Sequence record: DRR723986_9138
Length of the DNA stretch: 43,760 nt
Strand: one strand, 5' to 3'
The translations under genes were made by a program, and so were the position numbers. This document shows positions 8,531 to 33,718 of this stretch, piece by piece. Position 1 is the stretch's first letter; the number at the start of each line of letters is the position of its first letter. Below the pieces are notes generated by a model that did no database searches, was not told the origin of the DNA, and saw nothing but the letters and a program-made list of their open reading frames with translations.

Positions 8531-8680
8531 TATGCGGAAAATACGTCAATGCCCTGGTTCCATTGTTGAACAGAGTTTTGATGTTCTTTTTGCGGCAATG
8601 TGATCTGAGCAACAAAAGTTGTTAGGCAAGTTCGACCGGCGCAGACAATGCAATGGCCAACAATCATCTGGAATTTGAGC

Positions 8681-16300: not shown

Positions 16301-19300
16301 ACTGGTGTGATGTTAACACCTGGTCCACTACTTCGCACTCCGGAGCTGCAGCCACACGACATCCTAACACGCAGTATGATGTAGTGTTTATTGCTGAGAA
16401 CCATAGAGTCGATATGGACTGTAACATCGGTACTTCGTGGTTGTACGGAGGTGGTGTTGGGGAGAACGCATTCTACGGTCCGAACGTAACGGTTAAAAAA
16501 ACAGGCTCGTTGTACCTTGGACCATTTGAGCTTCGCGGAGCAGCCCTGACGGTTGAAAAAGGTGGGACGCTCGGCGTTGGATCGCAGGATGGCATCCGCA
16601 ATGGGTTTACTGGAAATGGCAACGTGTTAACATTTACACGTGCCTTCCTTGACAGTATGAATATTGTCTACACAGCCGAAGGTTATACTGCTTCGGTTGG
16701 TAGTGACTTCAGTTACTGTCGGCCCGGTTGGAGTTCGGGTACTCACTGGATCGAGCGCGTACGCGTTCGCGACAATTCGACAGCAACAATATTTGACAAC
16801 TCTACCGACAACTTTGGTCGTGGATTGTTCTACTATGCTGACAGCGTCATTACTATGACTGCCGGCCAGCAATATGATATGATCCTTAATCCAAACTCAG
16901 GCGGCAATAAGCGCTGGCGTGTTTGGATCGATTATGATCGTGACGGATCGTTTGATGATCCAGCTGAGCGTATGTTCGACTTCACGGGACCAAATCAACA
17001 AACTTCTCCAGACTTTACAGTTCCTGCCGGGACATTACCAGGTGTAGCGCGTATGCGCGTGCAGATGCGCGATGGCACAGGGACATCCGGGCCATGCAAC
17101 GGTAGTACAGGTGAAGTAGAAGATTACACCGTTCTGATTATTAACGATACTCCGCAGATTACGCAGCAAACCGGCAATGGTTTACCAGACATTCTTTGGG
17201 CCTTCGAAGTCGACGCTCAGCGTAATACACCCGGAATTGTGCAGCTCGGCAAAGCTATTGATGTGTCCGATTCTCTTGTGCTTTCGCGTGGAACGCTACA
17301 AATCGGATCAAATGACATTGACCTTGCCGGCGACTGGATCAACAATAATACGACGGTTGATTTGAACACCGGTACGGGAGAAGTGTTCTGCATCGGCAAA
17401 AAGAATCAGGAAATTCGCGGTACGGCAGAGACGAGCTTCAACGATTTCAGTATTAACAAAACCGATGGATTACTGAGCATTGCTACGAATGCTACCATCA
17501 GTAGTTCGATGACTTTTGACGCTGATAATCTGGTGTTCGTTGATCCGGATGTCACCCTGACGTTTGACCCATCTGCCACGTTGAGTGCTGGGGCAGGTGC
17601 CTTTAGCAAAAACAGAATGTTCCAGACGGAGGGTTCTACAACTGCCGGCCTAATTGTTAAACAATTTAGCAATGCAGCGGGAGCCAAGTCATTCTTGTTC
17701 CCTGTTGGAATTGACACAGTCTACAATCCTGCAGACCTTAGTCTTACCGCAACGTATGGAGCATTGCCTTCTGTTGGTGTGCGCCTGCGCGACGGTCTTC
17801 ATCCGGAGCGTTTACAGGATGACATGCTCAAGAAGTTCTGGACTGTGACTACAAGTGATATCTCTGCCATTTCTGCCAACACATTACAGTTTGGTTATGA
17901 AGATGTAGATATTACTGGTGATGTTTCGGCGTACATTCCAGCGTTTTACCGCAGCACTGGTGAGTGGGAGATTAATGTTGGTACAAATCCAAAAGCATCG
18001 CCTTCGCCTGTTGTTGCAACTGATGCTCCCTTTGTAGATGGAGACTGGAGTGCGGGTGGAAAACTCGTCTTTTTTGAAGGTCGAATTTTCTATAGTCGGC
18101 AAACTGGAGACTGGAGTAACCCTGACAATTGGTCCAACATTGGCCACAGTGATATCGCTGCATCTTATTACCCCTTTGAGCTATACGATAGTGACACAGT
18201 GATGGTTGATGGACATATCATCACTATGGATCTTGATTCGGTTCAGGTCGATTCATTGAGAATCGGTGGTTCATTTAATGGTACCGAGCCTCAGGGCCGT
18301 GGAATTGTGCGCTTTGGTCAAACTCCGGCCCAGAAAAACCTGATAATTAGTCGCAACCTGGACGTTGAATTTGATGGTGTCATTGAAGGCGATGCAGTCG
18401 GTGTGCGGAATGACACGCTGACCTTGCTGGGAGATATGCGCAACGTTGCTCAGGTGGGGGCAAATGCAGGGGTGTTTCTTGATAATAGCGCTACGAACAA
18501 TACTGCCATAAAATTTAGTGGTGATGGAAATAACCTGTTAACCGGGGATGGAGTCTGGGGGGATTTACCGCGAGTTCTGTTAGAGAAGACTAATGGTCTT
18601 GCGGATACTCTTATCAATCAATCAAGCTCATTCTCTAGCGCCAGTGGACGTGTATCACATTATCGGTTTAGTCCCAATGCAGGCGTCTTGCGGCAAGCTA
18701 CAAGTGGTACCCTGGGGCTCTCGTTTGGGACAGCCAGTGTCCAGATGTCACCTAATACTGCATTTGATATTCAGGATGGTGCCGTCAAAAGTTCCGGTAG
18801 CCTGATTTCTAATGCGGCGACCAGAATCCGACTGCGCGGTGGTGACTTGCTCGTAGGCGATGCTCAAAATGAAAACTTCCAATACCGGGCCGGTACAATT
18901 GTAAAAGTTGAAGATGGCCTCTTTGACGTGGCTGGAACATTTAGCCGTTATATCGCTGGTTCCACGTTGCAATATGAGCAAGCCACGAACGGAACTACGC
19001 GCGTAATGAAATATGGGAACACCGATATAGCCAAAATCGGGTTCGACATGGTTAACTCCGGATCCAGTTTTGATATGACTGGTGGCCGCATCATTATCGC
19101 GAATGGAACAAATGGAGCCTCAGCCGATTATCGCGTAGATGCCGGTAATGGTGCCGGTATGCTCGGTGGAGAGCTTCAGGCAGGTGACTCCACATTTACG
19201 GTGACCTCTGAGATCAAAGTTGCCGGAACTATGTCAATTGCTTCCTTGCACTCCGTTGCTTCCGGCGTAAAAACACAGATAACTGAAGAGACATTCATCG

Positions 19301-22300
19301 TACGAGAGAATGTTGAGATTGACAATGGACATCGCTTCCTGCTATTTGGAAATACCCTGGAAGTTGGTGGAGATATTACGAACTACGGGCTTTTTGATGC
19401 TGTCAGTGGTTCAGATCCTTCGGATGCCAGACTGTTAGTTGTTAATGGTAGTTCAGATCAAACGTTCTACAATGATGACACAGGTGGATTGGCGACATAT
19501 AATTTCCGCTTGGAGAAATCAGGTGGCAACCTGATTCTGGGTGCCGGTGGAAATTCAGAGTTGCTCATACAAAACACTTTTGAATTTGCAGGTAGCAATC
19601 AGGCCTTAATTGATGCGCGTACAAATGCACACTTCGTGCAACACTCTCCAACGACGAGTAGCACGTTGCAGTTAATACGCAACGGGCAGGGACACGTTGA
19701 CGGACGCATGTTCCGTTGGGTTGAGTCTGGTGCGAACCTTGTTCCATTTGCGGTTGGAACTTCAGCCTCATTGGATGCTTATACTCCGGCAGTGTTTGAA
19801 TCCCAGGGAAGCGGTGGAACAGCCGGCTTGGTTGGTGTGATGGCTGTTGGAACCAATCATCCACAAGTTTCGACGGCGAATCTTAAGTTAAACAACAATA
19901 TTCAACGCTATTGGAATGTTACCACAGCGGGTGGATTTGACCTTGGTGGCTCACGTACATTCCGGTTAACACTTCAGTTTATTGACCCTGATGATCTTCG
20001 TGACACACCCGAACTTCTGTTCTTTGCACAACATCGCTATACACCAGCCTGTCCTGATTTGCCCGCGCTCTGCCCGCCGGGCGGAACGTGGACTACCCTG
20101 ACGACACCCACAATTACCGACACGACAATGCGCTCGACTGGTAATTCTGAATTTGGTGATTTTGCTCTCGGTGAGTTAAACAACACTACTTTCTATAGTC
20201 GGGCAACAGGAAGTTGGACAGACCCTACAACCTGGTCTATTACAGGATATAGTGGAGGAGCTGCTTCACGATTCCCGGATCAGGCTACCGATATTGTGCG
20301 CATCGGGAACGGCAAACGAGTGAATCTGCCGGGACAAATTATTACACCAACAGTGCGTTCTGTGCTGGTTGAAGTATTTGATGATTTACCGGGTGAACTC
20401 TACATACAAGGTGACCTTGGAACAATCCGTGGTCTCTCATTTGAGTTGCAAGATTCTTGCACACTCGGCTTGCACCACCTTCAAGGTATTGCTCCGACCG
20501 GTGATCGTGGAGCCATCCAGATGGATACGCGACTCTTTGGAGTCGGTCGCTATGTGTTTAACAGTACAGCTGGAAGTCAAAACACTGGTGATGCAATTCC
20601 AGATAGTGTTGCGGCAATAATCGTTGACAACAATTCAACGCCGTTTAACACTGTGTTCATGTCTTTTCCATCCGGTGCCAACCCAGTAAGTATCCGGGAT
20701 ACGGTGCGCATCAATTTTGGAACGCTCAATAGTGGGCGCCGGGCTCTTAACGTATACGGCGACATGATTCTGCGGAATAATGGAGTGTTTGAACCACTGG
20801 ATGCATCGGTTGCATTTCGTGGTACAATTGATCGTGACTTGCGGCTCGACAATCTGACTGGCGTCGATTTCTATGATGTAAGTATCGACGGGGAAGACCT
20901 TATTGTTAAAACTGACTTCGTTGGCTCTTCTACCGCCCACGTTCACGTTATTAACACTTTAACATTTAGTTCGAGTGGGAACTTACGTGTCCGTGATGCG
21001 GACCGTTATGTTGAAGTTCAGATTCCGGGAAATGTTTCGCGTGTTGCAGGCTTTGTAGACGGCAAGATGCGTAAACCGGTTGGTAGTGGTGCTGAGAATG
21101 TATTCTATGAAGTTGGTAATCTCGATGACTACACACCGATTGAATTAACACTGGCGGCGGGTGCCGGTGGCGCAGCGGGTTCCGTTGATGCCATCAGTTA
21201 CAGCCCGATTCCAGCGGAGGAATTCGTCGGCAACCGATTGGACCTGAACGCGAAAATAGACCGATACTGGAGTGTCACCGGAGCAACCACGTTTGTGCTT
21301 GGAAGTCGCACAGCCAATGTCTCTCTCGGATTTCCAGGCAGCGAAGTTAGCTCCATAGTCACAAGTAATACAATCATTCGCAGGCGCAGTGTTCCAACGG
21401 AAGTGCCCGAATGGTCTGACCGTCGCAACTTGGTCTGGGAAGCAACCACAGCTAATGTTAGTCTGGCTCTTGGCGAATCGCCCTGGACAGGATTGGGTGA
21501 TTTCTTCCTTGGTGAGCGTGCTCAGCGAATTTTCTATAGCCGCCAAAATGGCGATTGGGATGAATCAAACTCGTGGTCATTTACAGGTTTCACGGGTGCC
21601 GCTGTACCAGCAGGAGTTTATCCCAATGACGATTGGCAACTCGGACCTGGGCAAGAATATGAAGTGCGTGACAGTGTAATCATTGGTGGCGGCAATTCAA
21701 TACTATTGAATACTCGGCCAGAGATTTCCTACCTGGAAGTCGCCAGCACCGGTACCCTCCGAATTGGAGAAGGCTTTTTCTTGACGGAAAGTCCGTATGG
21801 AACCAGTGCTTCGCTGGTGGCAGATGATGGAACACTCGATTTGGAGTCTGCCGATGGCATCGAAAGTGGTGTTGCTGACGGAGTCTGGCGTTTCAGTGAT
21901 GCTGTGCGAACCTTTGAACCTTTAGCTGACTATGTGTTTTCAGGTAGCCTTGACCAAGAGTTTGGTGGGGCATTCCCGCTTGCGGTCAACGACATTTTGG
22001 TTGACACCGACAACAATTCACGCACCGTACTGTGGAATCGCAGTGGGGTAGTGATGAGCGGCAACTTAACGGTCCAAACTGGTCAACTGACAATCGACAA
22101 CAACAACTTCCTGGGGGCCCCGGCTGATCAGGCAATTACAGTCGGTGGTAACTTACAGATTGATGCAGGCGCTGGGTTTGTAGTCGAAAATTCAGGTACC
22201 GCACCTCGTTCGCATTCGGTAACCCTATTTGGAAATGCAAGTGTTGATGGTGACTGGCTCATGCGTCCGGTTGCAAATAGCTCAGACTTCAAAGCCGAGA

Positions 22301-24924
22301 CAAGTTTCAGTTCAACCGCGACGCAGGTCCTCAGTGGATCTGGTACCGTGCGCTTGCACGGTGTGACGCTTGATAAATCAACATCCAGTTCGGCGGTTCA
22401 GAGCTCGATAGCTCTGGGAATCAGCCGTGTCAGTACTGGTGATGCCATCAATTTCTTGAATGGGCGTTGGGAACAGGCTGCCGGAGTTTTGACAATCGAT
22501 GACGGCGTTGGCCAGGCCCTGGTTCAAACGGTGCCATCCACCGGATCCCTGCACATTACAGGAAGCGGTTCCTATACGATGGGGCAGGGCGGCTCAGGGG
22601 CGTCACAAGAGATCGACGGCGGAGATATTCTGCTCAATAGCAGCGGTGCAGTTTTGATTGGATCTAGCGCCGGCAACTCCCTGCGATACACTAACACTCC
22701 TGGAAACCGCCTGACAATTATCGACGGGACCTTGACAGTTGCCGGACGCATTAGTCCCGAAGATGCACTGAACACACATACCCTGAGTTACACGCAAAAC
22801 GGTGGACAGGTAATTGTATCTGCAGTGAGTCACAACAACGCGAATTTAGGAACTTTTGATTTGCGTGCACCAGGCTCTTCCTTTGAAATGGGCGGCGGTA
22901 CAATTCTGCTACGTAACGCAAATCTTAGTGCGGATGGGACACGCCCAGCCGACGTTAACATTCTGGCCTCAACAGTCAATGTCACCGGAGGAACCATCCA
23001 ATTTGGTGATGGAAGTTCGGCGGCCTCACAAGAGTTTGATGTTGAAGTCACGAATGGGCCGGTTTGGAATGTAGCGGTTGGAAATACGAGTGCTACACTG
23101 AACCCATTTGCTGTAGCCAGTAATCTGCGAGTCCAGGGCAACCTTACCAATGATGGAACTGTTGACTTTACGGAAATCCGCACTGGCGCCGCAGCCGCTA
23201 ACTCGGTCATGACTTTCCAGGGTTCAGGAGGAACAAATCAACAAGTCACTGGCGCCGGTGTAACTGGATTGCAGAACATGACAATGAACCGTGGAGCCGG
23301 AACCGGCGTTCTGGTTCTTGGTCACGATGTTAGCGTCGCTGAAGTCCTAGACCTGCAGGAAGGCGCAAACTCCAATCCACAAGTCATTGAACTGGGTACA
23401 TCCGTAGACCTGATCATTAACAATACTGCCAGCGCGGCAATTGTCGATGCCGGAACAAACTCAGCTCCTTATCGCTACGTTCGTACCAGCCTGACAAGCG
23501 GGCGCCTCCAGCGTGATGTCACGTCTTCAGGCGGTACATATCTCTTCCCGGTTGGATCTTTTGATGGCGGAGTTGACAAATTTACCCCAGCAGAATTTAA
23601 CGCTGCGGCGGGTGGTACCGATGGTGGAATTGGTGTGCGTGTCTCACCAGGTCAATTGGTTGATGGTGGACACGCTCGCCTGAGTAACAGTGCTAGTGAT
23701 TACGTCCGTCGCTATTGGGCTGTCGGTGATGTAACAACCACGGTTCCAGGGCAATGGACCTTTAACTATCTGGACGGTCCGGCGGACTTAACTGGAAATG
23801 AAAATAACCTTGCAACCATTGCACGCTGGAATCCAGTAGATGAGGCGACGGGTGGAAGCTGGCGCCTTGTTTCTGCAGCCACTCTTAACACGGGTACGAA
23901 TCAATTCTCCTCGCCGGCCAATTATGCTGCCAGCGAGTTTACGGGTGACTGGACGGTTGGTGATGTTTCCGCCTTCCGCCGGATTTTCTACAGTCTGACT
24001 TCTGGACAATGGAGCGTAAGCTCAACCTGGACTTTTGATCCTGCGCATAGTGGCGCTCCAGTTGGTGTAGGCTTGTATCCTGACAATGCTCAGGATAGTG
24101 TTGTAATTGGTGGTGGAGCAGCCGGCACTAACGATCACGTCGTTGCACTTGATTCGGATCCTGTCATTGGTGGAATGACGGTCGGGACCTCCCTTGCAAA
24201 TACTGGAACGCTTGACCTGGGCGATTTCTATGTGAATGGATCGTGGTTCCGAACGACAACAGGCTCTACGCTACGCATTGGTTCCGCACTGGGAATCGTT
24301 AGTTCACCAACTAGCAGTGGAAATGTTCGGACGACGTTTAGAGAGTTTTCCACTCAAGCCAACTACGTATACTCCGGAACCACAAATCAGGTTCTCGGTA
24401 ACGGTTTGCCATCGACAATGCAGAGTTTCAGTGTTGCAAACACGGGTGCAACCGGCAATAACATTGTCAGTCTGGACCGTGCGCTGGAAGTCGGAGATGC
24501 TATGCAATTAGAGTCGGGTGGACTGGACATGCTCAATTTTGCAATTAGTAACAACCCTTCGAGTACCGGAGTTGTAGAATTGGCTGCGAACACGCTCCTC
24601 CGAATTGGTGGCACTGCAAGCTTTGCAACAGCACTGCCAAGTTATTCGGCTTATTCAATTGCTACCAGCAATACCGTCGAATACTATGGTTCTGTCCAAA
24701 GCGTAACGGTACCACAAAACGGTGCCGATGGATATGGAAACCTTACCGTAACCCAGACCGGAGTGAAGACAATTGCTCTGCCGGTGCGTGTACGTGGTGA
24801 TTTACGTGTGCAAAACGACGCAACTTTGCATATCTTACCGGGAGGCAATTCGGTCGAAGTCTTTGGGACAGTGCAAAACGATGCAACGCTAATCAATGAA
24901 GGGCGCCTGAAAATTGGCTCCTGA
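10390..24924 (+). CDS. Giant secreted repeat adhesin-like protein (beta-solenoid/G8-like modules x7, one GEVED domain)
   Basis: 4844-aa ORF with signal peptide ending GQA-Q. GTG 10390 overlaps the upstream stop; ATG 10465 is an alternative start. Seven (F/Y)(Y/F)S...G.W.....W(S/T) modules; RVWIDYDRDGSF...MRVQM...GEVEDY domain. No T9SS CTD, autotransporter barrel or RTX tail at the C-terminus. Confidence 0.85.
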   Translation: MIQSKFTQIFSSNQCIVTKRPNLNSMQQRLNDHTETSSISFASLRQSVLLALCAFCLLFASSEGQAQVPFALTNGAELTLTDGSLFTVNGAIEIDATSTLTQQGTGRIRVAGDWDNDGTFTAGTGTVELRGAATQAIEGAAATTFNEIIIAKDAVGNIVNIDADVNILNNFPVSTGTLQFANNSARAVTVQGGLDISGTAVFTVDAAGAALTHSISVEGSVTNANVLDFNPGGVAAANLTMNGSGSVEITGPGATTRLNGLIAAKSGLADIIEVNADNFDAANGFLAITGGLVHFAGTYTLAREFFATPGWNIPSAGGLWLDNADVTIQGQNGNGTIAGLLRITQGIFNVGDGASENSLFYDDGAQFEIFGGELNVTARLSGTAAGDEIDYNQTDGFVRVGNGARSTNGAFGMFDISSGSSTFDWSGGEIVLQRVVDGSNGREEYVNFAANGTVSGGILRIDNLDADNSRFDIESVADLPEIFMESANRARLRMDRDMTVLGDLTIAGTGGNRFIFANRTLTIGGDFINNGNNVNTINEGTTAEIIFNGSGEQRITGSNNNPTELPELQVNKTGVGNLILEVPVELFGDLRLVSDHLIDIDTYDLTVDAGDEIFSNTGSAQVFNSSKHIFSDAGTNAGTLIRGVSAGAATPFDLTFPIGTPNAYTPGLVQFLSGGATFAAGAFVQMRAVTQEHPAVELTNVSLQKYWTITTNGITLNPRGATVQFEYVQDEVQGNEGSYVVLYFSPAWPQVGGFWQIDPGLSDDIVQFNFKLFYSQEVNSLDGDWTAGEDDAGIAQYFSRQDGPYEDPDSWSRTTFGGPASATTPNKLSDRVFIRNHSISVNADPAPAHLLEIQAGSVITVNGDFAFTGDTLRLEDDTELAIAHSDGISEVAASGAIQSSIRDLSANAVYRFIGTASPQSTGDGIPSPVQSVIIDKAAGNSVGLAKSIAISDSLVINDGTLDLAAFTINGNSSGRSLIMRGGELLVRNTFPTNYSPPTFTSGEINFAGTGNQTIPSSLSNPAVLQYNDLTVSGVRGPTAAMTLRPQGEIRIGNVLDLSELSFQGAAFQRFLTDGSTVVFNASGAQSIPTHPLAPADSIVNLNYYNLVTAGSGVKSLTSTTASTFVILNDLNIQTNTTLASSGFDIEVRGDWNNTGGVFNSGTNAVVFRSESLGQSNTVTSRSTTDNPFYTVLFDGLGEIIVADDIQVNDDLFIGTSASLTLTTSTLSLAGDWSNTGGTFSAGTSIVEFSGAAQQKIRSANQGQTFYDLNIANGGLGVDARQVGGASDGITIANSLDLSGGNLNVRGRHVWTQGAIVRAGGTPGHIEGELRKTVGTDAQTVDYEVGFGESYTPITMVFAGTGGTEGLLGIDSDSVTTSSSPISTGVTPAANSLNDSRHVRRQWGISVPSGSAFAIGVDRTYDVTANFLADDARNGANPLLYESRIWTGASWLLPDRFGSPVQGLRSATSIIFEELTEFGTLTIGEPDFYNFYSLLDDGDWTDAATWSTQGYGGAAAPISPTANSRVFIGDSKTIILDAGVTIDGELTLDSTGVFDADVFVVSGAGTFSMSAASTLKTGNAGGLRSAAASGTIQTSTRDYNPGSHNRGTFVYKGAVGSQITGDGLPGTVARLIIEKSAADVTLNNAVNVSDTCSLESGELVLGADLNLQGDLLATTNASITPQTSTVTFDGSTGQSLVASGTTLSFFNFTVDKPINTGLLTFGTNSAVSVAGTLRFETGNEAYIDARTFTDCNVIVPGSIARVGSGHIDGTLQLNVPAGTATSLYHVGEGENYVPFTLELTGAGGTAGLVSIRNEPGRYDGLNDANTPIDPSRYIPRYWRMLEPSGSTFARGTRAMTVTLQVLDPADVGLVDALACSEMGFYRGATEGWQSLRPNTTGSNYPAGFGCGDTRFTLGSIDYDGSANTIIANDIPSDSTLGSTESIADGSTILGDFVIGNQNSIVITSFYSRTDGNWCDVNTWSTTSHSGAAATRHPNTQYDVVFIAENHRVDMDCNIGTSWLYGGGVGENAFYGPNVTVKKTGSLYLGPFELRGAALTVEKGGTLGVGSQDGIRNGFTGNGNVLTFTRAFLDSMNIVYTAEGYTASVGSDFSYCRPGWSSGTHWIERVRVRDNSTATIFDNSTDNFGRGLFYYADSVITMTAGQQYDMILNPNSGGNKRWRVWIDYDRDGSFDDPAERMFDFTGPNQQTSPDFTVPAGTLPGVARMRVQMRDGTGTSGPCNGSTGEVEDYTVLIINDTPQITQQTGNGLPDILWAFEVDAQRNTPGIVQLGKAIDVSDSLVLSRGTLQIGSNDIDLAGDWINNNTTVDLNTGTGEVFCIGKKNQEIRGTAETSFNDFSINKTDGLLSIATNATISSSMTFDADNLVFVDPDVTLTFDPSATLSAGAGAFSKNRMFQTEGSTTAGLIVKQFSNAAGAKSFLFPVGIDTVYNPADLSLTATYGALPSVGVRLRDGLHPERLQDDMLKKFWTVTTSDISAISANTLQFGYEDVDITGDVSAYIPAFYRSTGEWEINVGTNPKASPSPVVATDAPFVDGDWSAGGKLVFFEGRIFYSRQTGDWSNPDNWSNIGHSDIAASYYPFELYDSDTVMVDGHIITMDLDSVQVDSLRIGGSFNGTEPQGRGIVRFGQTPAQKNLIISRNLDVEFDGVIEGDAVGVRNDTLTLLGDMRNVAQVGANAGVFLDNSATNNTAIKFSGDGNNLLTGDGVWGDLPRVLLEKTNGLADTLINQSSSFSSASGRVSHYRFSPNAGVLRQATSGTLGLSFGTASVQMSPNTAFDIQDGAVKSSGSLISNAATRIRLRGGDLLVGDAQNENFQYRAGTIVKVEDGLFDVAGTFSRYIAGSTLQYEQATNGTTRVMKYGNTDIAKIGFDMVNSGSSFDMTGGRIIIANGTNGASADYRVDAGNGAGMLGGELQAGDSTFTVTSEIKVAGTMSIASLHSVASGVKTQITEETFIVRENVEIDNGHRFLLFGNTLEVGGDITNYGLFDAVSGSDPSDARLLVVNGSSDQTFYNDDTGGLATYNFRLEKSGGNLILGAGGNSELLIQNTFEFAGSNQALIDARTNAHFVQHSPTTSSTLQLIRNGQGHVDGRMFRWVESGANLVPFAVGTSASLDAYTPAVFESQGSGGTAGLVGVMAVGTNHPQVSTANLKLNNNIQRYWNVTTAGGFDLGGSRTFRLTLQFIDPDDLRDTPELLFFAQHRYTPACPDLPALCPPGGTWTTLTTPTITDTTMRSTGNSEFGDFALGELNNTTFYSRATGSWTDPTTWSITGYSGGAASRFPDQATDIVRIGNGKRVNLPGQIITPTVRSVLVEVFDDLPGELYIQGDLGTIRGLSFELQDSCTLGLHHLQGIAPTGDRGAIQMDTRLFGVGRYVFNSTAGSQNTGDAIPDSVAAIIVDNNSTPFNTVFMSFPSGANPVSIRDTVRINFGTLNSGRRALNVYGDMILRNNGVFEPLDASVAFRGTIDRDLRLDNLTGVDFYDVSIDGEDLIVKTDFVGSSTAHVHVINTLTFSSSGNLRVRDADRYVEVQIPGNVSRVAGFVDGKMRKPVGSGAENVFYEVGNLDDYTPIELTLAAGAGGAAGSVDAISYSPIPAEEFVGNRLDLNAKIDRYWSVTGATTFVLGSRTANVSLGFPGSEVSSIVTSNTIIRRRSVPTEVPEWSDRRNLVWEATTANVSLALGESPWTGLGDFFLGERAQRIFYSRQNGDWDESNSWSFTGFTGAAVPAGVYPNDDWQLGPGQEYEVRDSVIIGGGNSILLNTRPEISYLEVASTGTLRIGEGFFLTESPYGTSASLVADDGTLDLESADGIESGVADGVWRFSDAVRTFEPLADYVFSGSLDQEFGGAFPLAVNDILVDTDNNSRTVLWNRSGVVMSGNLTVQTGQLTIDNNNFLGAPADQAITVGGNLQIDAGAGFVVENSGTAPRSHSVTLFGNASVDGDWLMRPVANSSDFKAETSFSSTATQVLSGSGTVRLHGVTLDKSTSSSAVQSSIALGISRVSTGDAINFLNGRWEQAAGVLTIDDGVGQALVQTVPSTGSLHITGSGSYTMGQGGSGASQEIDGGDILLNSSGAVLIGSSAGNSLRYTNTPGNRLTIIDGTLTVAGRISPEDALNTHTLSYTQNGGQVIVSAVSHNNANLGTFDLRAPGSSFEMGGGTILLRNANLSADGTRPADVNILASTVNVTGGTIQFGDGSSAASQEFDVEVTNGPVWNVAVGNTSATLNPFAVASNLRVQGNLTNDGTVDFTEIRTGAAAANSVMTFQGSGGTNQQVTGAGVTGLQNMTMNRGAGTGVLVLGHDVSVAEVLDLQEGANSNPQVIELGTSVDLIINNTASAAIVDAGTNSAPYRYVRTSLTSGRLQRDVTSSGGTYLFPVGSFDGGVDKFTPAEFNAAAGGTDGGIGVRVSPGQLVDGGHARLSNSASDYVRRYWAVGDVTTTVPGQWTFNYLDGPADLTGNENNLATIARWNPVDEATGGSWRLVSAATLNTGTNQFSSPANYAASEFTGDWTVGDVSAFRRIFYSLTSGQWSVSSTWTFDPAHSGAPVGVGLYPDNAQDSVVIGGGAAGTNDHVVALDSDPVIGGMTVGTSLANTGTLDLGDFYVNGSWFRTTTGSTLRIGSALGIVSSPTSSGNVRTTFREFSTQANYVYSGTTNQVLGNGLPSTMQSFSVANTGATGNNIVSLDRALEVGDAMQLESGGLDMLNFAISNNPSSTGVVELAANTLLRIGGTASFATALPSYSAYSIATSNTVEYYGSVQSVTVPQNGADGYGNLTVTQTGVKTIALPVRVRGDLRVQNDATLHILPGGNSVEVFGTVQNDATLINEGRLKIGS

Positions 24925-25756: not shown

Positions 25757-25884
25757 TACTAAGCTTGGAACAGAGATTTCTTTTAAGTGGTTATCCATTC
25801 CAACGCCGTGAATAACTCAATCGCGATATCTAGCAATTAAATATATACATGCTGTCTTCCATTAATTTTCAAGGACTATTCATT

Positions 25885-28167
25885 ATGCGAATGAAGCACC
25901 AATTGAAACGACTGGCACTTGCGACCACATGCGGTCTCGCATTTGGCGCAGTCGGCGCAATGGCGCAAAATTTGAATAACAACGGCGGTACCATTAACAA
26001 CGTCGGTGATATCGTTTTCTGTACAGCAAACGGTGAGTTTCAGAGTGGTAACCCCGGCGCAGCCCTGAATGGCGATGGTCGCGTTCTCTTTGAAGAAGTA
26101 GGCAACCAATTCACCGAGCCAGGTGGTGGCGTAGGTGGACCAGGTGCTGTTGATACCGATCGTATCCCGTACGAAGTAGTTTGGACTGCGGACGCTGGTA
26201 CTCAAGTTGTTCAGGATCGTTTTTACACGAACCTGACGGTTGAAGACGATGCTGCCAAAACCATTAACGATGGCGTCTTTGTTAGCGAAGTTTACACCGC
26301 TGCCGGTGGCGACCGTACTTACAATGGCACGTTCACTTATGATGGTTCGCTCGCACAAAACATCTTCGCTGAAGTTGGTATTGGCGTTGGTACAAACCGC
26401 TACAACAACCTGCAGCTTACAGAAGCAGGTGCGAAAACTTTGCAGGCCGGCGACGCAACAACGGTTGACGGCGACCTCTTGATGGCAGCTTCCAATACAG
26501 GCGGTCTGTCTGTTGAGGGTGGTTTGACGATTGGTGATGCAGTAACGCAAGACGCTGCTGCTCCTCTGGTAATCGACGGAACGGGTGCCGCTGCTACTGA
26601 CGGTCAGTTTAACACTGGCGCTGGAGTAGGTGATTTCTCTGGTGCGGTTGCAATCAACAACGGTGGTCTTCTTGATGTTGTCGGTGCAGGTACCAACGAT
26701 TTCTCCGGCACCGTTGATGTAAATGATGGTGACTTCTTTGTTCGCACCGGCTCTGGCGATGCAACAATCTCGGGTGCCATGACTCTGGCCAACCTGGCAA
26801 CAGCTACACTGAATCTTGAAACTGGAACTGCACTCACAGTATCCGGTAGCTTGACTAACAGCCACGCCGCTGGTGTTAACGCAAACTTTGATGACGCTTC
26901 AACTGTTGCTTATACAGGTGCCGCCGGTCAATCTGTTATGCAAACTGTCGCTTCCAATCCTTACGGTAATCTCAGCACAGACAACGCTGGCAAAACTGCT
27001 GCCGGCGATGTTTACATGAGCAACAACCTTGATGTGGGTGTAACTGATGGTGCTGGTGGTGACCTTGATATGGATGGCAACACGCTGTTCATGACAGACG
27101 CCAATGCAACTGTTGACTATGATGCTACAAACTACACAGAAGTTGTTGGTGCTATGCGCCGTACGACGGATGCCGGTTTCGCTGGACCATATGTCTTCAA
27201 CAATGCTGAAACTCAGGTTTCCTTTACTGGTGGAACTGAGTACACTGGTTACTATGAAATGAATGTTCAGCCTGGAGTTGCTCCAAACAACTTTGACGCT
27301 GAGACTGATGTTGAGCGTAAAATTACTGTTGACTACGACAACACTGCATGGACAGCTACAGTTCGCGCCGGTTGGAAAGATGGTGAGCAGGGAACAGACT
27401 GGAACGTTCCAGCAGTACCTACGACTGTAGATCAACTGCGCTTCTTTGAGAACGATGGTGCTGAAGAGCAGAAAGTTGCTACAGGCCAGGCTCCTAGTCG
27501 CGACAATGCAAATACACTTCGTTATGTCGAGCTTGCCGGTATCGACGCTACAAACGTAGCATTGCCTGGTAACGCGATTAGCGAATTCTACGGAACGAAC
27601 GACCTTGTACTTCGTGGTGGACCAACAATTTTCTACGCCATTCTGGATGGTCGCTGGTCAAACCCTGGTACATGGGATGAAGGTATCGAGCCACGTGAGT
27701 ATGACAACGTAGTTGTTCAAAACGGTGTTACTGTTCACGTTGGTTATCGTCGTAATGGTGTTGATGGTACCAATCCAGCTGGTCAAAACGAAGAGGGTTT
27801 CAATCCTCTGACAGCTGACACTGAGCGTGATGGCGGTCTTGCTGCAAACGTTACGATTGAAGATGGTGGTGGCCTCCTGATCGGTTACAATGATAACTCC
27901 GATGTTGGTAATCCATTTACAGTTGATCAGAGCAACGGTTCAGTTGCTTGGGCACTTAGCTCAGGCGCTCTCCTCTCGAATGCTTCCGGTGCTGGTGCAA
28001 CAACTGCTCCAACCCCAGCTGTACTGACTTCAACGATGACTGGCAACACTGACTTCCCTGGCTTTATCAACTTCGGTAACAGTGCCGCTCTTGGTAGCTT
28101 CCAGGTTAGTTCAATCGATAACACCGGTTACCTCGCCAATGGTGGTACGCTGCGTGTTTGTGACTAA
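25885..28167 (+). CDS. Secreted beta-solenoid protein equal to one repeat unit of the giant; candidate major filament subunit
   Basis: AAGGA precedes ATG 25885 (ORF track start 25849). Signal peptide ends AMA-Q. TV.Y.G...Q.....Y.NL and FYAILDGRWSNPGTW motifs are shared with the giant. Codons look strongly biased by eye. No T9SS CTD. The CDS is secure; the subunit role is inferred. Confidence 0.75.
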   Translation: MRMKHQLKRLALATTCGLAFGAVGAMAQNLNNNGGTINNVGDIVFCTANGEFQSGNPGAALNGDGRVLFEEVGNQFTEPGGGVGGPGAVDTDRIPYEVVWTADAGTQVVQDRFYTNLTVEDDAAKTINDGVFVSEVYTAAGGDRTYNGTFTYDGSLAQNIFAEVGIGVGTNRYNNLQLTEAGAKTLQAGDATTVDGDLLMAASNTGGLSVEGGLTIGDAVTQDAAAPLVIDGTGAAATDGQFNTGAGVGDFSGAVAINNGGLLDVVGAGTNDFSGTVDVNDGDFFVRTGSGDATISGAMTLANLATATLNLETGTALTVSGSLTNSHAAGVNANFDDASTVAYTGAAGQSVMQTVASNPYGNLSTDNAGKTAAGDVYMSNNLDVGVTDGAGGDLDMDGNTLFMTDANATVDYDATNYTEVVGAMRRTTDAGFAGPYVFNNAETQVSFTGGTEYTGYYEMNVQPGVAPNNFDAETDVERKITVDYDNTAWTATVRAGWKDGEQGTDWNVPAVPTTVDQLRFFENDGAEEQKVATGQAPSRDNANTLRYVELAGIDATNVALPGNAISEFYGTNDLVLRGGPTIFYAILDGRWSNPGTWDEGIEPREYDNVVVQNGVTVHVGYRRNGVDGTNPAGQNEEGFNPLTADTERDGGLAANVTIEDGGGLLIGYNDNSDVGNPFTVDQSNGSVAWALSSGALLSNASGAGATTAPTPAVLTSTMTGNTDFPGFINFGNSAALGSFQVSSIDNTGYLANGGTLRVCD

Positions 28168-28379: not shown

Positions 28380-30473
28380 ATGACCCAACGAATTCTCATA
28401 TTATCGCTTCTTGCTTTAGTGACGGTGCCTATGTCGGTTACCAGTCGCACGGGCGGTGCTGTGGTGAATTCCGGTCAGATTTACAATGCTGGAAGGATTG
28501 AAACTGCAACGGCACAAAGCAGTGGCGGGGACATTACGAATGAAGGTAGCCTCTTCATTAGTGGAATTGCCACGTTCCGTCAGGATACAATCGACGGCCA
28601 CGTAATCTACGATGGTGATGATCAGACTCAAGCGCAATTTATCCCGCAAATTGTCTATCAAAATCTGGAGTTCAGTGGGCGCGGTTTAAAACGGCTGACT
28701 GAACTGGATACAATCGTCACTCGTGATACGTTTCTTACCGCTTCAGGTGATGTTGAACTTGTGATACGTGAAGGGACAGAAGTTGTTACTCGTGGGCGGG
28801 TTACACATAACGGGTTTATCAACCGTGACTTTGTACATGGTAGAATCGTAATGCAAGGTGAAGAAGCGCAGAGTATCGATGGTACCGGCAGGTACGTAGT
28901 TCTTGCGCTTGACAATGAAGCTGGTAGTGATGTAGTTAATGGCGGTGGTTTTACAGTTAATCGCAGACTTGAGTTGCTGCGCGGAGCTTTCCGCAACGAC
29001 AGTGAAAACAACTTCTCTCTTGGCGATTCCGCACTAATTGTACGTAATGTTGGATCCGGAGTCTCAGATGCGCCTCTATTCGGCGAAAATGTTTCCGTCA
29101 CGTATATCGGTGATGGGAGGATTTTCTCTGGGGCAGAGCTGCCTAACAACCCGGGAACACTTAACAACCTGCGCGTTGAAACAACGGAAGGTTTGGATCT
29201 TGCTCAGTCTACAACCGTTAACGATACCTTGTATATCGGTAGCAATGTTGATACTGAGCCGGGCGATCAACAGAATGTGTTAACTCATACGAGTGTTGAA
29301 AATCCAATCTTCGGGGATGATGACGCCGAAGTGCGTGGTTCTGTAAAACGTACGCGACTGGCCGCAGGTGGAGTTCAAAATGTGTTTAACAACACACATA
29401 CATACGCTGGTTTCTCGGACGTAGAGAGCCTGGGCGGAATGTCTGCAATGACAGTTCGTATCCTACCGGATTCGCTACCACTACCTTTGACTACAAACAC
29501 TGGTGACAAGGTTCGTCGTTCCATAACGGTAACGGCCGAAGACGAGCAAGGTGAAGTTATTCAGGGCGGATTTAATGCTGAGTTTGGGTATGCCTATAAG
29601 CTTGACCAAAATGATGAATTAAATGGACTGGACACCTTAGGTGTACAACTTCAGTTAAACACTGAAGAAGGTTGGGCCAACGTAGCAGAGCCGGCTGAAA
29701 CTGTAGAAATTGCTGGGAATTGGGTGCGCGGTAGTGTGCCAAATTTACAGCGCTCCGGTTTTTACGCAATTGGCATTGGCGAGTTGATTCCAAATGCTCT
29801 GGTTGACATTCGCGTTCTCTTGGAAGGTCCGTATCGCAATGGCCGTATGGCTGCTGACCTTGCCGAAGGTGGGTTTCTGCCAGACGCTCCACCGGCTATT
29901 TACCCTTACAGCCTGGATCCGAATCGCAACTTCGTAAGCATGGGGGATTTGGGTGAGCGTCGTGATCAAATTGTTGACTGGGTCGTTGTGGAATTCCGCA
30001 CCCTACTCAGCGGTGGTGAATCGCGCTACCGGACAGGCTTGATTACCTGGGATGGAAACATTGTTGATTACCGTGACGGTCAGACTCAAATAAAGATCGA
30101 CTCCGGAACATATTATATAGTCGTGCATCACCGTAACCACCTGGCCGTTGTTACACGCGATGAGCAAGTTCTGACGCCTGAAACACATAGCTTTGACTTC
30201 ACTCGTGCGGGGCTGCTTCTTGGTGGAAGTAACGCCGTCAACCTGGTTGATGAAAACGAGACAGGGCGACAGTTCTTTGCTATGATTGGTGGAGACACCA
30301 ACGGTGATGGTGTTATTGATGAACAAGATTATGATGACTCTGCTACCGCTGCCTGGTTAAATCATGACAGCGAAGGATATATAAACCCAGATACAGATTT
30401 GAATGGTATCGTCACTACACGCGACGCAAACGTATCCTGGAACAACCGCGACAAGGAAACCCTTGCGCGATAA
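28380..30473 (+). CDS. Secreted paralog of the 772-aa protein with C-terminal LEGPY...HRNHL module and dockerin-like tandem Ca-binding loops
   Basis: Likely start ATG 28380 with signal peptide. EVRGSVKRT..VFNNTHT..VRRSITV parallels EVVGAMRRT..VFNNAET..VERKITV. C-terminal GDTNGDGVIDEQD and PDTDLNGIVTTRD loops. Confidence 0.75.
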   Translation: MTQRILILSLLALVTVPMSVTSRTGGAVVNSGQIYNAGRIETATAQSSGGDITNEGSLFISGIATFRQDTIDGHVIYDGDDQTQAQFIPQIVYQNLEFSGRGLKRLTELDTIVTRDTFLTASGDVELVIREGTEVVTRGRVTHNGFINRDFVHGRIVMQGEEAQSIDGTGRYVVLALDNEAGSDVVNGGGFTVNRRLELLRGAFRNDSENNFSLGDSALIVRNVGSGVSDAPLFGENVSVTYIGDGRIFSGAELPNNPGTLNNLRVETTEGLDLAQSTTVNDTLYIGSNVDTEPGDQQNVLTHTSVENPIFGDDDAEVRGSVKRTRLAAGGVQNVFNNTHTYAGFSDVESLGGMSAMTVRILPDSLPLPLTTNTGDKVRRSITVTAEDEQGEVIQGGFNAEFGYAYKLDQNDELNGLDTLGVQLQLNTEEGWANVAEPAETVEIAGNWVRGSVPNLQRSGFYAIGIGELIPNALVDIRVLLEGPYRNGRMAADLAEGGFLPDAPPAIYPYSLDPNRNFVSMGDLGERRDQIVDWVVVEFRTLLSGGESRYRTGLITWDGNIVDYRDGQTQIKIDSGTYYIVVHHRNHLAVVTRDEQVLTPETHSFDFTRAGLLLGGSNAVNLVDENETGRQFFAMIGGDTNGDGVIDEQDYDDSATAAWLNHDSEGYINPDTDLNGIVTTRDANVSWNNRDKETLAR

Positions 30474-30495
30474 CCAGCTGCAAACCAGGCGTAGT

Positions 30496-31800
30496 ATGAT
30501 GACGCATCGACCACATAAGCTTTCACAGGGAGACGCATCTGTCGCCAGGCGTAGCGCCTTTGCGTTTATTTGTGGCCTGCTCTTGTGTTCATTGATGAGT
30601 GTTAATGAATTGCACGCGCAGTCCGACAAAGATACGATTGCAAATGTCTCGGCAATTTTGGTAGCGCAACCACAGCCTAACCAAATAGAGCTTGATATCT
30701 GGGTAAAGAATATATCAAATAGCGAATGGCTAATGTGGGCGAATGGGACCTTTCAATTGGAGTTTCCCGGGGTCGCTATGGAGGAGTGCACAATTGAACA
30801 GCTTCCGGGCTTTTCTGCACTTCCTGCGGCCGAATACCAGATCATTCAGAATACTTTTCCAGGTAGATTGAGTATTGGGGTTCTTGGCCCCAAGAACTTT
30901 GGCGATTGTGTCGCTGTTGCGGTCGAAGATAGCGTGCGCGTCGGGCGCTTTCGAGTCTCAATACCTGAGCCAAATACTCTGCCGCTGAACATGAATTGGG
31001 TAACCCCCTTACCTAAATATCAGGCCACGGCTTTTAAAATCTTTGATGATCGCACTCCATTTTTCTATTCCGACGACAACATTGCGATGTTGGTCGGCGA
31101 GTTCGCGACATCATACGATATAAGGGATGTTGATATTCCCGACTTTCAGTTGGTTAATTTCTACGGCGAATACTTGGGTGACCGTAGAGTGCGGCTGTTC
31201 TGGCGCACCGAAACAGAAGTCTCAAACCGTGGATTTGTTATTGTTCGCGGCATTCGCCCTCTCGGGCAGGTAGATGAAGAACTAGACTTTGTTGACACGG
31301 TCGCGTGTTACGATTCTTACGAGACGCCTGATTTTGACTGTCGCCGCGTTGACCTTAATAGCCCAGGACTCAGCCTCGACCCGCTGGATTATTCTACTCC
31401 TGACACCGTTGATTTCCGCGAAGAAGAATACGTCTATCAATTGTACTATCATCACTTTGATGGTCAATTGGTATTCTTAGCTGAGACGCGCGTATTTGTA
31501 CCGAGTTCGGTTATCAGTTTTGCACAGGCGAATCCGAACCCATTCAGAAGTCGCACTATTATTGAGTATGTGGTTGACGACCGTGTGGTGTTGACGGCAA
31601 AAGTCTATGATGTTAATGGCCGCGAGGTTGAAACATTGATAGATCGGCAAATTACACCGATTGGAAGATATGAAATAGAATTTGTAGCTGCGCGGCTTAG
31701 CTCGCAAGGCCTCTATCATGTAAGGTTTACTGCATTCCCGGTTGATGATCCGTCTGTTGTAATTTCTACAGCCGATGTTAAACTACAACTAATCCGGTAA
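30496..31800 (+). CDS. T9SS type-A sorting domain protein with N-terminal cohesin-like beta-sandwich
   Basis: Start ATG 30496 follows the upstream stop; signal peptide ends LHA-Q. LVNF...LFWRTETEVSNRGF Ig/Fn3-like domain. CTD: NPNPFRSRTIIEY...VYDVNGREV...GLYHVR...KLQLIR. The cohesin-like call is my inference from the strand pattern. Confidence 0.75.
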   Translation: MMTHRPHKLSQGDASVARRSAFAFICGLLLCSLMSVNELHAQSDKDTIANVSAILVAQPQPNQIELDIWVKNISNSEWLMWANGTFQLEFPGVAMEECTIEQLPGFSALPAAEYQIIQNTFPGRLSIGVLGPKNFGDCVAVAVEDSVRVGRFRVSIPEPNTLPLNMNWVTPLPKYQATAFKIFDDRTPFFYSDDNIAMLVGEFATSYDIRDVDIPDFQLVNFYGEYLGDRRVRLFWRTETEVSNRGFVIVRGIRPLGQVDEELDFVDTVACYDSYETPDFDCRRVDLNSPGLSLDPLDYSTPDTVDFREEEYVYQLYYHHFDGQLVFLAETRVFVPSSVISFAQANPNPFRSRTIIEYVVDDRVVLTAKVYDVNGREVETLIDRQITPIGRYEIEFVAARLSSQGLYHVRFTAFPVDDPSVVISTADVKLQLIR

Positions 31801-31830
31801 TAGCTTTAACACCATATGGTTATCTAAACC

Positions 31831-33309
31831 ATGCACATAGCAAGATCATCAATACTTATATTGTGCAGCCTCGCTGGATTTATTCTGCCGGGGCCTTTGC
31901 TATTGTGTGATACCGATACGACCAGAACTCTTGCAGACGTCGATGTTGCGACAGTTGAAAACCCGTCTTCACCTATCGAGATTCCTGTCCAAAATGAATT
32001 GATCGGTGCGGCTACGCGCATATCAATCTTGCCTAATAAAGATACAGTTCTGACTACTTCTGGTTATGGCAACCTGTGGTTTGGAATATATGGGGGACCA
32101 AATTTTGGAACCTACCTCGGTGAGTTAAATCTGGCCTTAAATCGCTCTTCCCAGGTGCGCAACTTAGGCAGAGGATTCGGATCCGGTAGCTCGATTGGAT
32201 ATTTCATCGGCGCTATGGCAGAGTGGAAAAAACAAGATTGGCAATGGGGCTTCGGACTCAATGTCTCCTTTCTTGATGTGCGCGATGGGGCCTTCGAGTC
32301 TCTGGAAAACCAGTCGGTCATCGCTGAGTATGAAGGTGAGACACAATTTCGATATTTCACAATCTCGCCGACGGCCAGGTTGGATGTCATTGGCGGGTTG
32401 TATGCTTTCGGGGGGCTCGACTTTGAGTTGAATGTTGGGTCGGAAGCACTAATCATCCCGACTATTGATACTTCTGCCGTTATCCGCGAAGAGCGCAATG
32501 TTGATCTTGAAGCAAATGGCTTCCGCATGGGACTGCACGTAGGCGCGGCATATGAGTTCTTAGCTCTGGAAATAGCCGATAAAGCGCGTGTGCGACTCAG
32601 TCCATTCGTAAGTTTCCACTACGGATCAGAAGTTTCGAACAATCTGAATTCAGACTTGAACCTTGGGTTCATGCGTTTAGGGCTGACTCTAAAAGTTGGG
32701 GCAAACAGCGAACAACGCACCGTTAGGCGCTATGATCCGGACTTCATTGACCCACCAATCTATTTAGCATCGTTGCCGCAGCGGTTTGATTATGAAATTC
32801 CGGCCTTGCGACCAGATGAACGCATCGAAGCAATTCAGTTGGCCGTGATTGAACGACCCGTTATACAGACTCCTGCGCCGGATACAGTTGTTACTGAGCC
32901 ACCAGTGATAGCCAGTGCCGAAGTGCGGACTCCGCAACCTCAACGACAGCCGATTGAGATTGCCGGATTGAATGAAGAATTTGTCCTTGGAATACAAGGC
33001 GGTGCTTTGAGCACAGATTTAACGCAAACGTCTTATGCATATCTGGATGCAGTGGCCAATTTTTTGAAGCAAAATCCATCTGTTGAAGCACAGATTGCAG
33101 GTTATACGGATAACTTTGGTACTCCCGAAGAAACCCAAAGAGTTTCTGAGTTGCGTGCCAGCCACGTCGTAAATTATCTGGAATCAAAAGGCATCAGTCG
33201 TAGCCGCTTGTTTCCATCAGGTCTTGGTGCTCGTTCCGCTATCGCTAATAACATTACAGAAGAAGGCCGGCGACGCAACAGGCGTGTAGGTGTCACGCTG
33301 ATAGAGTGA
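31831..33309 (+). CDS. OmpA-family protein: beta-barrel + Pro-rich linker + peptidoglycan-binding OmpA_C domain
   Basis: GYTDNFGT...SELRASHVVNYL..KGI...GLG....ANNITEEGRRRNRRV. The central region has alternating amphipathic strands (WFGIYGG, WGFGLNVSF, LYAFGGLDF, RLGLTLKVG). Confidence 0.88.
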   Translation: MHIARSSILILCSLAGFILPGPLLLCDTDTTRTLADVDVATVENPSSPIEIPVQNELIGAATRISILPNKDTVLTTSGYGNLWFGIYGGPNFGTYLGELNLALNRSSQVRNLGRGFGSGSSIGYFIGAMAEWKKQDWQWGFGLNVSFLDVRDGAFESLENQSVIAEYEGETQFRYFTISPTARLDVIGGLYAFGGLDFELNVGSEALIIPTIDTSAVIREERNVDLEANGFRMGLHVGAAYEFLALEIADKARVRLSPFVSFHYGSEVSNNLNSDLNLGFMRLGLTLKVGANSEQRTVRRYDPDFIDPPIYLASLPQRFDYEIPALRPDERIEAIQLAVIERPVIQTPAPDTVVTEPPVIASAEVRTPQPQRQPIEIAGLNEEFVLGIQGGALSTDLTQTSYAYLDAVANFLKQNPSVEAQIAGYTDNFGTPEETQRVSELRASHVVNYLESKGISRSRLFPSGLGARSAIANNITEEGRRRNRRVGVTLIE

Positions 33310-33530: not shown

Positions 33531-33718
33531 CATTATATATGCACCGCGTGTGTAATGGGATGAGCATATTCAAGTCGATAATTCCGTCTGGCATTTGGAT
33601 GGCTTCCCGGCGTATCGACAGCCCAGAGTGATCCCAGTGTTGTCCCAGCGTGGGCCGTTGTGCTCTGCGAACTGCACAGACAAACTTTTTTACATCTTCA
33701 CTAAATCTTGGCAAACAA

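Follow-up and report, generated by a model that had tools for sequence, protein, structure and literature searches.

What could be the role of two cysteines that are the only ones in the mature chain of a predicted secreted protein and that occupy matching positions at its two extreme ends? This question is raised by p772, which is encoded on the plus strand of a 43,760-nucleotide stretch of DNA from sequence record DRR723986_9138. By the window we mean this entire stretch, to which all positions refer; p772 residue numbers are those of the 772-residue longest open reading frame (ORF) unless called mature. A preliminary description of this DNA proposed that, should the last rung of one p772 subunit rest on the first rung of its successor, the two cysteines would be neighbours and could form an inter-subunit disulfide, yielding a covalently linked filament. 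The comparison of homologs and their genomic neighbours described here supports this proposal in part: a contact between chains is favoured, but the picture of a stand-alone homopolymer turns out to be too narrow because the proteins encoded on either side of p772, a giant of 4844 residues and p723, share its ends. We regard it as somewhat probable that a single rung-stacked fibre has the giant, p772 and p723 as its segments and that p772-p772 joints in it could be locked by a disulfide.

The two cysteines of p772

The features of p772 on which the argument turns are given below. Here and throughout, P-numbers denote representatives of the p772 family and L-numbers denote loci in homolog genomes.

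25849..28167, plus strand: p772 ORF, a predicted secreted beta-helix protein of 772 residues; likely true start ATG 25885
25849..28167, plus strand: p772 layout according to the ORF and the AlphaFold2 (AF2) model, namely N-terminal acceptor helix, beta-sandwich insert, W-motif and short C-terminal donor helix
25885..25965, plus strand: p772 signal peptide M13..A39, with Cys28 inside; cleavage between AMA and Q, with A39 and Q40 invariant; the start of P0001 corresponds to M13
25966..26022, plus strand: first (acceptor) rung of p772, QNLNNNGGTINNVGDIVFC; Cys58 codon 26020-26022; model strands E2-5, E9-12 and E15-18 in mature numbering
27649..27684, plus strand: p772 W-motif, GRWSNPGTWDEG, which opens the C-terminal helix segment; G601, R602, W603, P606, T608, W609 and D610 invariant
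28108..28164, plus strand: last (donor) rung of p772, SSIDNTGYLANGGTLRVCD; Cys771 codon 28159-28161; family consensus NxGxIxNxGxIExGx

The 772-residue translation contains cysteines at positions 28, 58 (codon 26020) and 771 (codon 28159), and no others. Cys28 lies within the signal peptide, which ends in ...LALATTCGLAFGAVGAMA and is followed by QNL at the start of the mature chain, so that mature p772 has exactly two cysteines, Cys19 and the penultimate residue. The residues A39-Q40 that flank the cleavage site are invariant in 16 of 16 aligned sequences. The nearest homolog, P0001, begins at the position of M13 (25885), which implies a precursor of 760 residues and a mature chain of approximately 733; the length of 772 residues that the preliminary description assigned to the mature protein is that of the longest-ORF precursor. 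Its other statements on p772 are borne out, in that the mature chain contains only the two cysteines mentioned and the motifs in which they reside, NVGDIVFC at the N-terminus and NGGTLRVC at the C-terminus, both conform to the pattern N-x-G-x-h-x-h-C. In the AF2 model, each cysteine directly follows a four-residue strand (E15-18 and E728-731 in mature numbering). A simple count gives p~8e-5 for two lone cysteines, placed at random in 733 residues, to fall in register within the first and the last 21. At the donor-rung position of Cys771, where the window protein has cysteine, most family members have glycine.

Co-occurrence of the terminal cysteines

An exhaustive HMMER search delineates a p772 family of 195 representatives at E<=1e-3. 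We aligned 159 sequences and mapped every cysteine to the residue numbering of the window p772; after removal of 15 partial sequences and six fusions longer than 1100 residues, the remaining 138 homologs were scored for an odd number of cysteines in the region 40-165 of that numbering and, independently, in the last 70 residues. Both an unpaired N-terminal cysteine and a C-terminal cysteine are present in 36 proteins and neither is in 93, with six proteins possessing only the N-terminal and three only the C-terminal one (Fisher test, p = 2e-23, a value that ignores phylogeny). About 20 separate clades contain pair-bearing proteins (23 were counted on a FastTree tree without support values). 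At 84% identity, P0002 has both cysteines and P0016 has neither. Thus, the co-occurrence and co-loss among homologs by which the preliminary description suggested checking its proposal is clearly observed.

The positions of the cysteines vary from clade to clade. Nevertheless, the pair types (41,755), (43,759), (50/51,765), (54,767) and (58/59,771) hold an offset of 712-716, which indicates that the first and the last rung correspond residue for residue. Such an in-register offset is the expectation for a last rung that would lie on a first one. When the C-terminus of the window protein is joined on paper to the mature N-terminus, the two cysteines come to be 20 residues, or about one helical turn, apart.

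Contact within or between chains

If the two cysteines meet, do they do so within one molecule or between two? Among 35 pair-bearing proteins, the N-terminal helix spans 254-449 residues, the middle part 218-277 and the C-terminal part 132-185; the latter two are nearly constant in length and show no compensation for the length of the helix (r = 0.10). Body length thus varies by 195 residues, yet both cysteines stay at the chain ends, and in P0013, P0071 and P0134, where extra rungs are present at the N-terminus, the cysteine sits in the new outermost rung. A rigid helix of any length would be one that cannot join its own ends in cis. These patterns favour a contact of the last rung of one chain with the first rung of another over an intramolecular staple.

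Further evidence comes from the giant that is encoded upstream of p772.

10390..24924, plus strand: giant beta-helix protein, 4844 residues; donor-rung motif at the end, no tail cysteine in the window
24859..24921, plus strand: donor rung of the giant, ...VFGTVQNDATLINEGRLKIGS, comprising the last residues; cysteine-free ...NEGRLKIGS end

The tail of the window giant, ...NDATLINEGRLKIGS, contains no cysteine. In an hhalign comparison, giant tails and p772 tails align as far as their respective final residues (Prob 81%, E 1.2e-5); BLASTP finds no match of p772 or p723 to the giant at E<=0.01, so the tail likeness lies at the level of motif and profile only. We could inspect 28 giant tails, those of 27 loci and the window; the giant tails in the L007, L010 and L015 genomes were located separately, by a search with the C-terminus of the window giant, a p772-tail query of these three genomes having retrieved p772 itself only. 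A single cysteine in the terminal rung is found in 6 of the 28 giants, and all six adjoin a p772 homolog that has an unpaired N-terminal cysteine and a matching tail cysteine, compared with 3 of the 22 giants lacking a terminal-rung cysteine that adjoin a cysteine-paired p772 (Fisher test, p = 2e-4, relatedness ignored). The offsets of the tail cysteines in the giant and in p772 are -2/-2 in L008, L013 and L021, -2/-3 in L057, and -8/-8 in L012 and L014. In three further giants, from the L007, L010 and L015 genomes, there is one cysteine at -11, in the motif GQLCNDG, which matches the acceptor motif GHVCNN of their own p772. Altogether, a giant tail cysteine at or near the p772-tail offset is found in 4 clades. 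At the other end of the giant there is no mature cysteine in the L008 and L021 genomes and one in the L057 genome.

The protein encoded downstream of p772, p723, presents the complementary end.

28380..30473, plus strand: p723, 723-residue ORF with likely start M27; the C-terminal domain ends in ...WNNR; mature chain cysteine-free
about 28449..28706, plus strand: acceptor rungs of p723, homologous to the p772 N-terminus (hhalign)

The N-termini of p723 and p772 are matched by hhalign (Prob 97%, E 5e-11); with BLASTP, the two proteins show no more than a weak match (E 0.01) over 68 residues of the sandwich region. The only cysteines of the 723-residue ORF, at positions 6 and 11, both precede the likely start M27, and the earlier remark that the equivalent rungs of the giant and of the 723-residue protein lack cysteine is true in the window. 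The p723 homolog of the L007, L010 and L015 genomes, by comparison, has exactly one cysteine in its whole frame, located in the first rung (GVICNQ), where p772 has its acceptor cysteine, so that no intramolecular partner is possible. The p723 homolog of L012 has one mature cysteine, at ORF position 555.

Furthermore, the joint between p772 and p723 occurs in nature as a covalent one: P0060, P0069, P0078, P0084, P0088 and P0113, which are 1451-1581 residues long, consist of a p772-like and a p723-like part with no linker (P0060 matches p723 in BLASTP at 2e-66). These natural fusions imply that both window genes belong to one assembly. In P0078, two cysteines 21 residues apart lie one on each side of the seam. 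We modelled 540 residues of P0060 with AF2, using 72 sequences in an alignment built from sub-ranges of loci, and obtained a predicted local distance difference test score (pLDDT) of 85.1 and a predicted template modelling score (pTM) of 0.84; around the seam pLDDT is 93-98, and the strand E222-231 spans it. Two known structures, both straight beta-helices, superpose over the seam, 5nxk_A (Z 11.7, root mean square deviation (rmsd) 3.6 Å, 209 residues aligned in the range 114..382, at least 54 of them before the seam) and 8cpk_A (Z 9.4, rmsd 4.4 Å, 240 aligned in the range 47..387, at least 80 before the seam); most other structural matches begin at or past the seam. In the model, the fusion is one continuous helix over the seam.

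The C-terminus of p723 (30250-30470) has features of its own, with two Asp/Asn-rich loops, GDTNGDGVIDEQD and DTDLNGIVTTRD, ahead of the conserved ...WNNR end, which is common to all p723 homologs and fusions. We take the two loops to resemble dockerin or EF-hand calcium sites; they have no match in Pfam.

A separate arrangement is seen in the clade of L031, L045, L066 and L077, where the tail of the p772 homolog has a lone cysteine at -12 (NDGCLNIGG) that is unmatched at the N-terminus, and residue -60 of the giant is a cysteine. In L031 and L045, the two cases in which the p723 homolog was checked in full, the lone cysteine of p723 occupies ORF position 622 or 607. These proteins may represent a different junction layout.

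A proposed fibre encoded in segments

Since the giant terminates in a donor rung like that of p772 and p723 opens with acceptor rungs like those of p772, we see in p772 what looks like the central piece of a fibre made of several proteins. We propose that this fibre is a beta-helix that is genetically segmented. Each segment would end in a short donor rung (NxGxIxNxGxIExGx), begin with acceptor rungs (QNxxNxxGxIxNxGxIxF...), or both, and successive chains would be stacked in register, last rung upon first, whereby the helix would continue over the protein boundary. A donor end would be all that the giant offers, p772 would combine both kinds of end, and p723 would have nothing but an acceptor end, followed by its distinct C-terminal domain, so that the order of the chains would be that of the genes: giant, p772 in one or more copies, p723. 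The gene order giant, p772, p723, p465-like, OmpA-like is kept, as 10 of the 10 loci inspected in detail agree, and signal peptides are present on the giant, p772 and p723. Lineages would repeatedly have added cysteines on both sides of the joint, thus acquiring an inter-chain disulfide lock. From these comparisons we infer stacking in trans, disulfides that would form at some of the joints, p772 chains that would associate with one another, and a putative fibre that would presumably be located in the periplasm or on the cell surface.

Why should p772 be joined to p772 at all? In the window, only p772 has junction cysteines, which leaves Cys58 of another p772 as the only trans partner of Cys771 and hence calls for at least two p772 copies placed head to tail. 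The p723 protein is cysteine-free next to a p772 that has kept its tail cysteine not only in the window but also in L001, L002, L008, L013, L021 and L057, which argues for p772-p772 joints. The four cysteines of the L007 clade, for their part, fit two hetero-joints, which implies that homopolymerisation is not required everywhere.

Alternative explanations

The C-terminal rung might instead fold back on the first rung of its own chain, with Cys58 and Cys771 bonded within the monomer. We consider this unlikely, albeit it would directly explain why the two cysteines co-occur in one protein; covariation within a single protein would fit such a staple equally well, and it is for this reason that the case for trans contact draws on the proteins encoded next to p772, on the fusions and on the variation in helix length. 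Compatible with a staple, too, is the confidence of the monomer model both overall (pTM 0.89) and at the termini (pLDDT 89-96 and 87-94), as are the proteins of one clade (P0059, P0048) that pair Cys 621, just past the W-motif, with a cysteine at ~204-232. The latter pairs suggest that the C-terminal segment is close to its own N-terminal helix, next to the middle portion of it, and that the subunit is no simple rod. What a staple leaves unexplained are the tail cysteines of the giant at or near the p772-tail offset in 4 clades and the p723 homolog with a single cysteine in the first rung. In the fusions, the donor rung runs straight into the acceptor rung of another protein, with a modelled helix that is continuous. 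The helix varies by 195 residues while the parts that would bridge its ends are constant and the cysteines remain at the extreme ends; cis closure of a coaxial stack would have to span the whole helix. Still less likely, in our estimate, is a chain of one giant, one p772 and one p723 without any p772 polymer, in which case the cysteines of the window p772 would be free, remnants, or paired with partners encoded elsewhere. Such a 1:1:1 chain is suggested by the gene order, with its one copy of each protein, is compatible with the one mature cysteine of the L012 p723 homolog (ORF position 555), and is matched exactly by the cysteine count of the L007 clade, where the giant cysteine at -11 could pair with the N-terminal one of p772, and the p772 cysteine at -51 with the N-terminal one of p723. 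It is at odds with the window, L001 and L002, where neither the giant tail nor p723 has a cysteine and yet p772 keeps both, and with L008, L013, L021 and L057, where p723 is cysteine-free while the p772 tail cysteine stays; moreover, the tight co-occurrence of the p772 cysteines over about 20 clades is hard to explain if they never meet. Finally, there might be no disulfide at all, with the cysteines being chance substitutions or having a different function, for instance in a metal site or as a free thiol. At the C-terminal position, glycine is found most often, and mature chains devoid of cysteine make up 43 of the 138 in the family, so that cysteine is evidently dispensable for the fold. Nevertheless, this explanation appears highly improbable given the co-occurrence (p = 2e-23), the co-gain or co-loss at 84% identity and the in-register offsets, and because the signal peptides indicate that proteins of the p772 family leave the reducing cytoplasm.

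Apart from the cis-compatible covariation and the Cys 621 pairs, several observations weigh against the segmented fibre with p772-p772 joints that we prefer. The pairing has nine exceptions (six proteins with only the N-terminal and three with only the C-terminal cysteine). Some pair types, namely 43-49/708-717, 95/757, 116 with a C-terminal GICQ, and 148/158 with 738-744, do not fit simple stacking of the last rung on the first and would require either an interface of greater complexity or loops extending to the joint. All cysteines of the L007 clade could be accommodated in giant-p772 and p772-p723 joints, leaving no p772-p772 joint there. The Fisher tests ignore relatedness, and the tree comes without support analysis.

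Fold and family of p772

Searches of p772 against Pfam and NCBIfam return 0 families at E<=0.1 and at 0.01. In a genome scan, the family is found in metagenome-assembled genomes labelled Kapaibacterium/Kapabacteria, Ignavibacteria, Chlorobiota and Bacteroidota. No named protein occurs among the members of the three p772-family clusters that were looked up, and no publication on the family was found at the level of titles and abstracts.

The AF2 model of p772, which was derived from a 101-sequence alignment, has a pLDDT of 92.8. Mature residues 1 to ~360 form a right-handed beta-helix in this model; residues ~367-530 are long strands in a sandwich-like insert; and the segment ~545-733 starts with the W-motif and continues with approximately four more rungs that have long loops. 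For residues 1-401 of the model, the best structural match is the Vag8 passenger 7akv_G (Z 16.8, rmsd 4.8 Å, 345 residues aligned), with 2iou_H at Z 14.2, and nearly all of the 114 chains at Z>=8 are beta-helices; a Foldseek search of p772 against PDB gives no match at E<=0.001. By its model, p772 is predicted to belong to the right-handed parallel beta-helix fold, either pectate-lyase-like or passenger-like.

For p772, a type Va autotransporter is rejected because there is no C-terminal barrel: the chain ends with the donor rung ...GGTLRVCD, and the last 190 residues are short helix rungs in the model. The comparisons with the HMW1 and EtpA secretion domains (Z 11.2 and 9.7) are generic beta-helix matches only; Pfam detects no two-partner secretion (TPS) domain in p772, and there is no TpsB-like gene among the scanned neighbours. 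Cargo of the type IX secretion system (T9SS) was discarded as a candidate, there being no C-terminal sorting domain (Por_Secre_tail) in Pfam or NCBIfam. Pilin, usher and chaperone families are also absent from the Pfam and NCBIfam scans.

Two local cysteine pairs in the p772 family are independent of the terminal pair. One, between position 51 (NATC) and an insertion at 148, is present in about 45 sequences, common enough to place the 148 loop near the first rung; the other, 349 with 391, is widespread in the family. In P0076 (911 residues), an N-terminal extension ends with a donor-like rung, NHGLLDNKGIVEIGN, eight residues ahead of the acceptor start QNFHND..., and the acceptor of this protein may be self-capped, by analogy with self-complemented pilins.

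The giant has a single Pfam domain, GEVED (residues 2176-2248). Six FYSRxxGxWxxxxxW motifs similar to the p772 W-motif are found at residues 1497, 1970, 2573, 3274, 3721 and 4539. Together with GEVED, they give the giant the appearance of a tandem array of some six modules, with p772 as a circularly shifted version of one module.

Neighbouring genes

30403..33309, plus strand: p465 and p492, conserved downstream partners; weak match resembling the T9SS C-terminal domain (CTD) and OmpA-family C-terminal domain, respectively

The T9SS-CTD-like match of p465 (30403-31800) is weak and sub-threshold (E 0.0035), as is that of another neighbour, p1510, to a T9SS sorting domain (E 3e-4). As listed, p465 begins inside the p723 ORF, with which it shares 71 nucleotides. 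The OmpA C-terminal domain belongs to p492 (31831-33309), the N-terminal region of which looks like an outer-membrane barrel (...GYGNLWFGIYGGPNFGTY...); p465 and p492 are conserved downstream of p723 in other genomes. The block from p772 to p492 is flanked by two LuxR-type response regulators (receiver and GerE domains) at 24994-25635 and 33650-34363; histidine-kinase families have no match among the window ORFs of at least 150 residues that were run through Pfam or NCBIfam. A 581-residue ORF with a signal peptide (8648-10393), which has no Pfam or NCBIfam family, overlaps the GTG start of the giant by 4 nucleotides, which suggests that the two belong to one operon.

Implications and comparison with known systems

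The finding is computational, and the fold itself is an ordinary right-handed beta-helix. The new part would be a beta-helix fibre made in segments that complement one another's rungs, with disulfides as an optional addition at the junctions. Beyond the window, we entertain, with confidence that falls slightly short of even, the possibility that Kapabacteria, Ignavibacteria and their relatives build an undescribed filament: a beta-helix of tens of thousands of residues that would be encoded in pieces, assembled by complementation of terminal rungs and locked by junction disulfides that arose repeatedly and independently. The pieces would be the giant, a repeatable shaft segment of ~730 residues and a terminator. 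If this is true, the cysteine pairs provide a natural map of the interface between subunits, and the many independent pairs amount to contact restraints that are open to experiment; the pairing of donor with acceptor ends would account for how uncapped natural beta-helices avoid random aggregation; at least 195 representative proteins without a Pfam or NCBIfam family would gain a role; and protein engineers would have ready-made orthogonal connectors that can be locked by disulfides.

How does such an assembly compare with fibres that are already known? The passengers of autotransporters and TPS systems (Vag8, pertactin, TibA, EtpA) are the best structural matches to p772 residues 1-401, but they are single chains that are not joined end to end; p772 has no detected C-terminal barrel or TPS domain. 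The subunits of curli and bactofilins are small, are made of a single repeat type and associate non-covalently. The p772 system would differ from them in its subunits of 700-4800 residues, beta-sandwich inserts, distinct donor and acceptor ends, three proteins, and disulfide locks in some lineages. The likeness to the p772 proposal lies in the head-to-tail stacking of beta-solenoid subunits with sheets continuous over the boundary, as portrayed for curli CsgA and bactofilins (PMC10192328, PMC4372379). No sequence relation of p772 to curli or bactofilins was found, with 0 families in Pfam.

In the Bacillus endospore appendages (Ena), which occur on Gram-positive spores, the subunit is a small jellyroll protein that has an N-terminal connector peptide. 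Ena are disulfide-linked pili and resemble the p772 proposal as a bacterial fibre with inter-subunit disulfides formed through terminal segments (10.1101/2020.08.21.260141). In the p772 case, by comparison, the subunit would be a right-handed beta-helix with cysteines in the stacked terminal rungs, and the disulfide is optional in the family.

In pili assembled by donor-strand exchange, both the chaperone-usher and the Bacteroidota type V kind, a donated terminal element completes the fold of the next subunit; the tip, shaft and anchor subunits have a specific order and are encoded side by side, and it is a single strand that enters an immunoglobulin-like fold. What p772 would donate is not one strand but a whole helical rung, placed on the open end of a helix. 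If the proposal is true, this would be a new bacterial fibre design, which combines the stacking of curli and bactofilins with the tip-shaft-anchor order of pili and an optional covalent lock.

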